Assembly: GCF_003334255.1 (NCBI RefSeq)
Contig: NZ_QOWU01000161.1
Source of the DNA: Escherichia coli
Lineage (GTDB): Bacteria > Pseudomonadota > Gammaproteobacteria > Enterobacterales > Enterobacteriaceae
Reading direction: 5' to 3' (one strand)
DNA: 1,341 nt
Within the stretch, counting starts at the first letter, position 1; every line of letters begins with the position of its first letter. Made by a program: the position numbers and the translations under genes. This document shows, in pieces, positions 1,099 to 1,341 of the stretch. The notes beneath the pieces were generated by a model, which was not told the origin of the DNA, did no database searches, and worked only from the letters and a program-made list of their open reading frames with translations.

Positions 1099-1341
1099 TC
1101 ATCCGTTCTGGCTGACTAAATCCTGTACTTCCCTGACCGTCTGCTCAAAACGTTCAGTCTCCAGCTCAACGCCAGTTGCACGACGCCCGAGCGCCAGTGC
1201 CGCTTTCACTGTCGAACCCGACCCCATGAAAAAATCTGCAATCAGGTCACCCGGACGACTGCTAGCGCTGATTATCTGCTGCAGCATTTCTGCCGGTTTT
1301 TCGCACGGATGTTTCCCGGGATAGTACTGCACCGGTTTATG
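1099..1341 (-). CDS. DNA methyltransferase, C-terminal fragment (beta-class N6-adenine/N4-cytosine type, PF01555-like); 5' end lies beyond the window
   Basis: Seen in sequence: the minus-strand frame is open to the window edge at 1341 (the ORF track's M at 1332 is an internal GTG) and ends at TGA 1101..1099. The translation carries KHPCEKP followed by DFFMGSGST, matching the HP-x-x-KP and FxGxG(S/T) SAM-binding motifs that I recall from the C-terminal half of this methyltransferase family. Target base (A vs C) cannot be decided from this fragment. Confidence 0.7.
   Translation of the reverse strand, partial: HKPVQYYPGKHPCEKPAEMLQQIISASSRPGDLIADFFMGSGSTVKAALALGRRATGVELETERFEQTVREVQDLVSQNG

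Follow-up and report, generated by a model that had tools for sequence, protein, structure and literature searches.

A methyltransferase gene beside a prophage tRNA cluster in Escherichia coli: a probable orphan, non-specific adenine methyltransferase of the M.EcoGII/M.EcoGI clade

What a methyltransferase gene situated just ahead of a prophage tRNA cluster encodes, which sequences its product would modify and whether it has a partner endonuclease are the questions raised by a stretch of 1,341 nucleotides from Escherichia coli (contig NZ_QOWU01000161.1; the whole of this stretch is called the window here), at one end of which the gene is cut off. A preliminary description of the window had reported a PF01555-like methyltransferase of unknown specificity, of a kind that is often an orphan, in an arrangement said to differ from that of 933W-type phages. 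The reading that we hold with good confidence is that the gene encodes an orphan prophage enzyme of the M.EcoGII/M.EcoGI clade that would form m6A in any sequence context, be induced late and shield phage DNA. The locus thus described carries a routine allele from a prophage enzyme family that is already known and characterised and is very widespread.

The full-length gene and its prophage

The part of the gene lying within the window occupies positions 1099–1341 on the minus strand, where translation shows 80 open codons followed by a TGA stop (1099–1101); these are residues 273–352 of the full protein. Because the frame continues past the end of the window, the GTG start at position 1332 in the list of open reading frames (ORFs) is a truncation artefact, and the gene would reach window coordinate 2157 were the window longer. 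The 80-aa fragment alone matched Pfam PF01555 (N6_N4_Mtase) far beyond chance (E = 3.4e-21, model positions 160–220 of 221), and the full protein matched it over residues 29–340 (E = 1e-42), so the family named in the preliminary description was the right one.

Four E. coli chromosomes (JE86-ST05, JE86-ST02, UCPROB-001 and UCPROB-002) match the window at 100% identity along its full 1341 nt, the remaining full-length matches listed being 97–99% identical. We read the full gene from the JE86-ST05 locus, oriented with the genes reading forward and designated L001 below, where the coding sequence is intact and specifies 352 aa (L001 14185–15243, RefSeq WP_137466585.1). The preliminary description had left its assignment open to doubt on two counts, a missing catalytic (D/S)PP(Y/F) motif and an interruption of the frame upstream, and neither materialized when the full protein was checked: DPPY is present at residues 35–38, a position outside the window and read in the 100%-identical genome, and the gene is uninterrupted. 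Two further motifs lie within the window on the minus strand, namely HPCEKP (residues 283–288, positions 1294–1311), which is invariant in seven aligned homologues, and FMGSG (residues 310–314, positions 1216–1230), which matches the FxGxG AdoMet-binding motif I. A pseudogene was ruled out by the intact ORF together with a dN/dS of ∼0.1; in six pairwise comparisons among four alleles the values were 0.10–0.16, the pattern expected of a methyltransferase family on which purifying selection acts.

The order of these elements, with an N-terminal DPPY, a central target-recognition domain and a C-terminal FxGxG, is that of the beta class. A Dam-like alpha-class (GATC) enzyme such as M.EcoVT2Dam was rejected because the motif order here is reversed, alpha-class enzymes of that type having FxGxG at the N terminus and DPPY at the C terminus; the same contrast between the classes was drawn by Murray et al. 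(PMC5778455). The PADLOC type II methyltransferase model matched the full protein with E = 3.4e-164. Among solved beta-class structures, 9c3u/8urk (‘Methyltransferase’), M.RsrI, CcrM, M.MboIIA and M.PvuII matched with E values from 3e-25 to 3e-07, sharing the catalytic core in two matched stretches that cover the DPPY and FxGxG regions. The central region (approximately residues 140–265) matched no solved structure in the structure search, in keeping with the published remark that M.EcoGII has no experimental structure (PMC11551740).

The prophage is lambdoid, and the gene belongs to its late region, with Q on one side and the lysis, terminase and capsid genes on the other. In L001 the order is RusA, Q (12937–13620), a 65-aa ORF (13837–14034), the methyltransferase, tRNA-Ile and two tRNA-Arg genes, followed by a TerB-family gene, DUF3927, a SASA (nanS-p-like) esterase, holin and lysozyme, terminase, portal and capsid. 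In the 15 kb to each side of the methyltransferase in L001 the annotation names no restriction endonuclease, the sole endonuclease-like entry being RusA, a Holliday-junction resolvase, and PADLOC gave no restriction-enzyme match in four neighbours (the small ORF, TerB/TciA, DUF3927/TciB and Q). With no endonuclease nearby, we regard the methyltransferase as an orphan, as had been supposed beforehand, and a type II restriction-modification pair was ruled out on the same ground.

Several genes of the JE86-ST05 prophage are frameshifted or truncated (DUF4752, ead/Ea22-like, two DUF551 fragments and YdfR; L001 7906–10447 and 19720–20061), so the prophage may be defective and may be non-inducible in that strain. 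Such decay would fit a reading in which the methyltransferase is an intact but unexpressed passenger of a dying prophage in this genome, which we consider unlikely: the methyltransferase ORF is intact with all of its motifs conserved, the low dN/dS indicates a family maintained by selection, and the annotation gives the Q, lysis, terminase, portal and capsid genes as intact. Even if correct, this alternative bears on activity in one strain and not on the identity of the gene, which we continue to treat as that of an M.EcoGII-type orphan.

Relationship to M.EcoGII and predicted specificity

M.EcoGII (EGT69837.1) is a 349-aa beta-class enzyme from a prophage of E. coli O104:H4 C227-11, and experiments have demonstrated that it methylates adenine whatever the sequence context (PMC5778455). 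For comparison we used the M.EcoGII sequence as machine-read from Table S1 of PMC11551740, with three obvious misreads corrected by hand. By full-length identity to this machine-read sequence the window's protein falls within the M.EcoGII/M.EcoGI clade, with 334 of 349 residues identical (∼95.7%, a figure with a possible error of one or two residues). The O104:H4 paralogue WP_000935536.1 (loci L003 and L004) is identical to the corrected M.EcoGII sequence at 334/349 positions and to the window's protein at 332/349 (95.1%). Because the published identity between M.EcoGI and M.EcoGII is 333/349 (PMC5778455), we take this paralogue, which is very likely M.EcoGI, as such; the same agreement to within one residue is why the corrected sequence was retained, and it implies that the machine-read sequence is accurate to about one residue. 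On these counts the window's protein and M.EcoGI are equally close to M.EcoGII. A tblastn search of the phage collection with the M.EcoGII sequence found nothing closer than ∼95%, and exact look-ups of the corrected sequence and of three further variants returned no match.

The window's enzyme thus resembles M.EcoGII in its beta-class motif order, in its length (352 vs. 349 aa), in being prophage-borne and in being an orphan, and differs from it by 15 substitutions and a different C-terminal tail. Two tails recur among these proteins. The longer (...DLVSQNG, 352 aa) is found in the window (positions 1099–1120, minus strand) and in phages 1720a-02 and Stx2a_1447, with ...NVVSQNG at the end of a remnant in 933W; the shorter (...DLIV, 349 aa) is that of M.EcoGI and M.EcoGII, and DNA-search matches spanning only query positions 1–1041 appear to be of this variant.

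The preliminary description had called the specificity unknown, a view that the comparison with M.EcoGII does not bear out. The phage 1720a-02 enzyme, to which the window's protein is 96% identical, was named as ‘very similar’ to M.EcoGII by Murray et al. (PMC5778455), and homologues with 92–93% similarity to M.EcoGI and M.EcoGII were already given as ‘nonspecific’ by Forde et al. (PMC6602927). In the work of Ochiai et al., the ancestors reconstructed for the clade were still non-site-specific; among relatives, M.PflMI is the nearest for which site-specific activity is confirmed, and its node is the outer limit of the reconstruction (PMC11551740). Given the identity to M.EcoGII and the non-specificity kept in the reconstructed ancestors, we infer by homology that the window's allele would methylate adenine in any context.

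The target-recognition domain of the clade (residues 160–237) has been reported to be a four-helix bundle with a helix-turn-helix (PMC11551740). In the window's protein the HTH_3 profile match is weak (residues 167–195, E = 0.061), and four residues of the domain differ from M.EcoGII (S164A, S191P, D203N and A212S). These four differences are the starting point for a rival reading in which the enzyme is a sequence-specific orphan, the substitutions conferring a defined motif unlike the any-context activity of M.EcoGII, and it may be added in its favour that RefSeq and others label close relatives ‘site-specific DNA-methyltransferase’, albeit as a generic automatic name. We judge this reading very unlikely, as the remaining 74 of 78 residues of the domain are those of M.EcoGII, homologues at 92–93% similarity are given as nonspecific, and the reconstructed ancestors lack site specificity, M.PflMI being the nearest relative confirmed to possess it. 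D203N and A212S also set the window's protein apart from the O104:H4 paralogue, so that these two among the four differences are specific to the window's allele. Any-context adenine methylation is accordingly the specificity that we would predict for it.

Position between Q and the tRNA genes

In the direction of minus-strand transcription the methyltransferase is, as first described, directly upstream of the tRNAs, its stop codon being separated by 40 nt from the first of three same-strand tRNA genes. Each was called by ARAGORN, Rfam and RefSeq, all on the minus strand: a tRNA with anticodon CAT of the ileZ type (983–1058), a tRNA-Arg (TCG) of the argN type (897–973) and a tRNA-Arg (TCT) of the argO type (807–883). 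The first of these is Met according to ARAGORN and Ile (ileZ) according to RefSeq and the Stx-phage records. If the CAT anticodon carried lysidine, as that of tRNA-Ile2 is known to, AUA would be the codon read; the discrepancy is one of annotation convention and not a feature of the sequence. Sub-threshold plus-strand Rfam matches to Plastid-ycf2 (antisense to a tRNA) and Six3os1_3 were dismissed as noise.

A consensus scan placed a promoter-like TTGAAG-17-TATTAT at positions 1068–1096 on the minus strand (L001 15246–15274), where 933W has an annotated ‘pT, putative tRNA promoter’ (3083–3111 of the 933W locus, designated L005), and if this site were real, tRNA expression could be independent of Q and of the methyltransferase. 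The same kind of scan placed a terminator-like hairpin and T-run just after the third tRNA (775–792, minus strand; L001 15550–15567), in the position of the 933W ‘terminator upstream of the stx genes’. Beyond it, also on the minus strand, are a TerB-family/TciA gene (205–636; RefSeq and phrog_632, E = 6.5e-69) and a small DUF3927/TciB-like gene (44–208; RefSeq and phrog_1470, E = 3.1e-24). The slot past the tRNAs and hairpin, filled by TerB/TciA and DUF3927/TciB here, holds stx2AB in Stx2 phages and DUF3927 with IraM in O104:H4. The position after the tRNAs is a hot spot of cargo exchange.

The claim that this arrangement differs from that of 933W-type phages stands for 933W itself and fails as a general statement. 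Phage 933W (NC_000924.1) is alike in having the same ileZ-argN-argO block, and it differs in that only a 37-codon remnant of the methyltransferase is left, abutted by Q, pR', qut and terminators; its Q ends ∼440 bp before ileZ, with no methyltransferase annotated between them. Over the interval that starts exactly 111 nt ahead of the methyltransferase stop and continues across the tRNAs, 933W is 91.8% identical in nucleotide sequence to the L001 locus (L005 2970–3120 aligning to L001 15133–15283, which is window 1059–1209), and the 933W frame still encodes the last 37 residues of the enzyme, ending in VKAAMALGRRAIGVELESGRFEQTVREVQNVVSQNG and a stop codon. The same remnant occurs in further phage records, among them TL-2011c, PA2, phi345 and several Stx2a-converting phages, and forms a PHROG family of its own, phrog_14488, of 50-aa ‘DNA methyltransferases’. 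The remnants show that in 933W-type phages the Q module meets the tRNA-stx module inside the methyltransferase gene. A further boundary of recombination is the gene's 3' end, where the two alternative tails occur.

Of 5426 complete E. coli genomes, 1912 contain 80% or more of the gene, a single genome having as many as seven matching places, and Q is not displaced, lying 565 bp upstream of the methyltransferase start in L001. The exact protein is found on 131 contigs, its 90%-identity cluster has 4845 members, and in 166 phage records the match extends over 80% or more of the protein. Stx2-converting phages are among those with the full arrangement: Stx2a_1447 and 1720a-02 (enzymes 96% identical in amino acid sequence) carry the full gene, then the tRNAs, then stx2AB where the window has tciA/tciB, and in megablast matches WGPS2 and other Stx2-converting phages have these tRNAs after a DNA methylase. 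In 1720a-02, Stx2a_1447, WGPS2 and the Shigella phage SfV alike, the same small ORF precedes the methyltransferase and the gene lies between Q and the lysis genes; SfV, whose orf48 product is 81% identical to the window's enzyme, differs in having no tRNAs, a holin gene directly following the methyltransferase. The neighbourhood of the O104:H4 paralogue shares with L001 the succession of Q/antiterminator, 65-aa ORF (98% identical), methyltransferase, tRNA-Ile, tRNA-Arg, tRNA-Arg, DUF3927, SASA esterase and holin, and differs in its 349-aa tail variant and in having IraM, with no TerB/TciA, downstream of the tRNAs. Methyltransferase followed by tRNAs is therefore the common arrangement, and the distribution suggests that it is ancestral and the 933W type derived.

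That RNA, whether the adjacent tRNAs or late mRNAs, might be the main substrate and the linkage to the tRNAs functional is extremely improbable, for although M.EcoGII methylates rA in DNA:RNA hybrids and, to a lesser extent, in RNA, and the gene and the tRNAs adjoin on the same strand in many phages, its initial rate is roughly 90-fold lower on RNA than on DNA (Table S3, PMC11551740), and the occurrence of the enzyme beside lysis genes without tRNAs (SfV and PhiR46_1) and of the tRNAs without the enzyme (933W) makes the two separable modules. Our literature search yielded no relevant paper on ileZ/argN/argO together with a methyltransferase.

Proposed expression and role

Upstream of the gene in L001 we found, each as a consensus match only, a sigma-70-like TTGCAA-17-TATATT that overlaps the end of Q (13610–13638), a G+C-rich terminator-like hairpin with a T-run (13693–13707) and a second terminator-like hairpin at the end of the small ORF (14021–14038), both hairpins preceding the methyltransferase. 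A pR' followed by tR' is the classical lambdoid layout, and the layout at the L001 Q matches it. SfV has an annotated terminator at the place equivalent to the L001 hairpins, and in 933W pR', qut and terminators are annotated just after Q. From its place downstream of Q and of these promoter- and terminator-like sites, the methyltransferase is probably expressed late and kept silent in the lysogen. In a lysogen, transcription would halt at the terminators downstream of Q and no methyltransferase transcript would be made; upon induction, Q would antiterminate late transcription and the enzyme would be produced only then. Transcription of this Q-dependent kind agrees with the published observations that the lysogen methylome bears no mark of M.EcoGI or M.EcoGII and that their forced expression is harmful (PMC5778455).

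Once produced, the enzyme would heavily and non-specifically N6-methylate the replicating phage DNA before packaging, and in the next host the progeny DNA would resist the many restriction enzymes of types I, II and III that m6A blocks. A phage-protective, anti-restriction role of this sort is the hypothesis of Murray et al. (PMC5778455), and the preliminary description, in mentioning protection of phage DNA from host restriction, was probably right on this point. The literature that we searched contained no paper testing either the anti-restriction role or the hypermethylation of packaged DNA on an induced lysogen.

The 65-aa ORF (phrog_331, E = 2.8e-37), separated by 150 nt from the methyltransferase start, stands ahead of the enzyme gene in all the close relatives that we examined and is more conserved than the enzyme, being 94–98% identical across them, SfV included, where the enzyme is 81% identical. 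An ORF weakly resembling it (24% identity, E = 3e-4) is found two genes upstream of the PhiR46_1 methyltransferase, which is itself 59% identical to the window's enzyme. The Pfam matches of the 65-aa ORF are all sub-threshold and of the winged-helix type (TrmB, 0.0046; MarR_2, 0.056). The conserved linkage and these helix-turn-helix profile matches, taken with the analogy of the C proteins of restriction-modification systems, led us to consider that the ORF might be a dedicated winged-helix-like controller that times or limits a toxic methyltransferase, and that loss of the module in 933W-type Stx2a phages might have been selected. We regard this as a speculative and rather improbable idea; if true, the loss of the module in those phages would alter how the Q-to-stx region is read.

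M.EcoGII is in wide use as a chromatin-footprinting tool. For the clade to which the window's gene is assigned, the present comparison matters chiefly for correct annotation, as databases label its members ‘DNA-methyltransferase’ or ‘site-specific DNA-methyltransferase’ and the type enzyme of the clade is non-specific. The remnant junction in 933W offers a small, concrete marker for the recombination history of the Stx-phage late region. The proposed native role, with late induction and the shielding of phage DNA, concerns the whole family of M.EcoGII-type enzymes and not just this locus.
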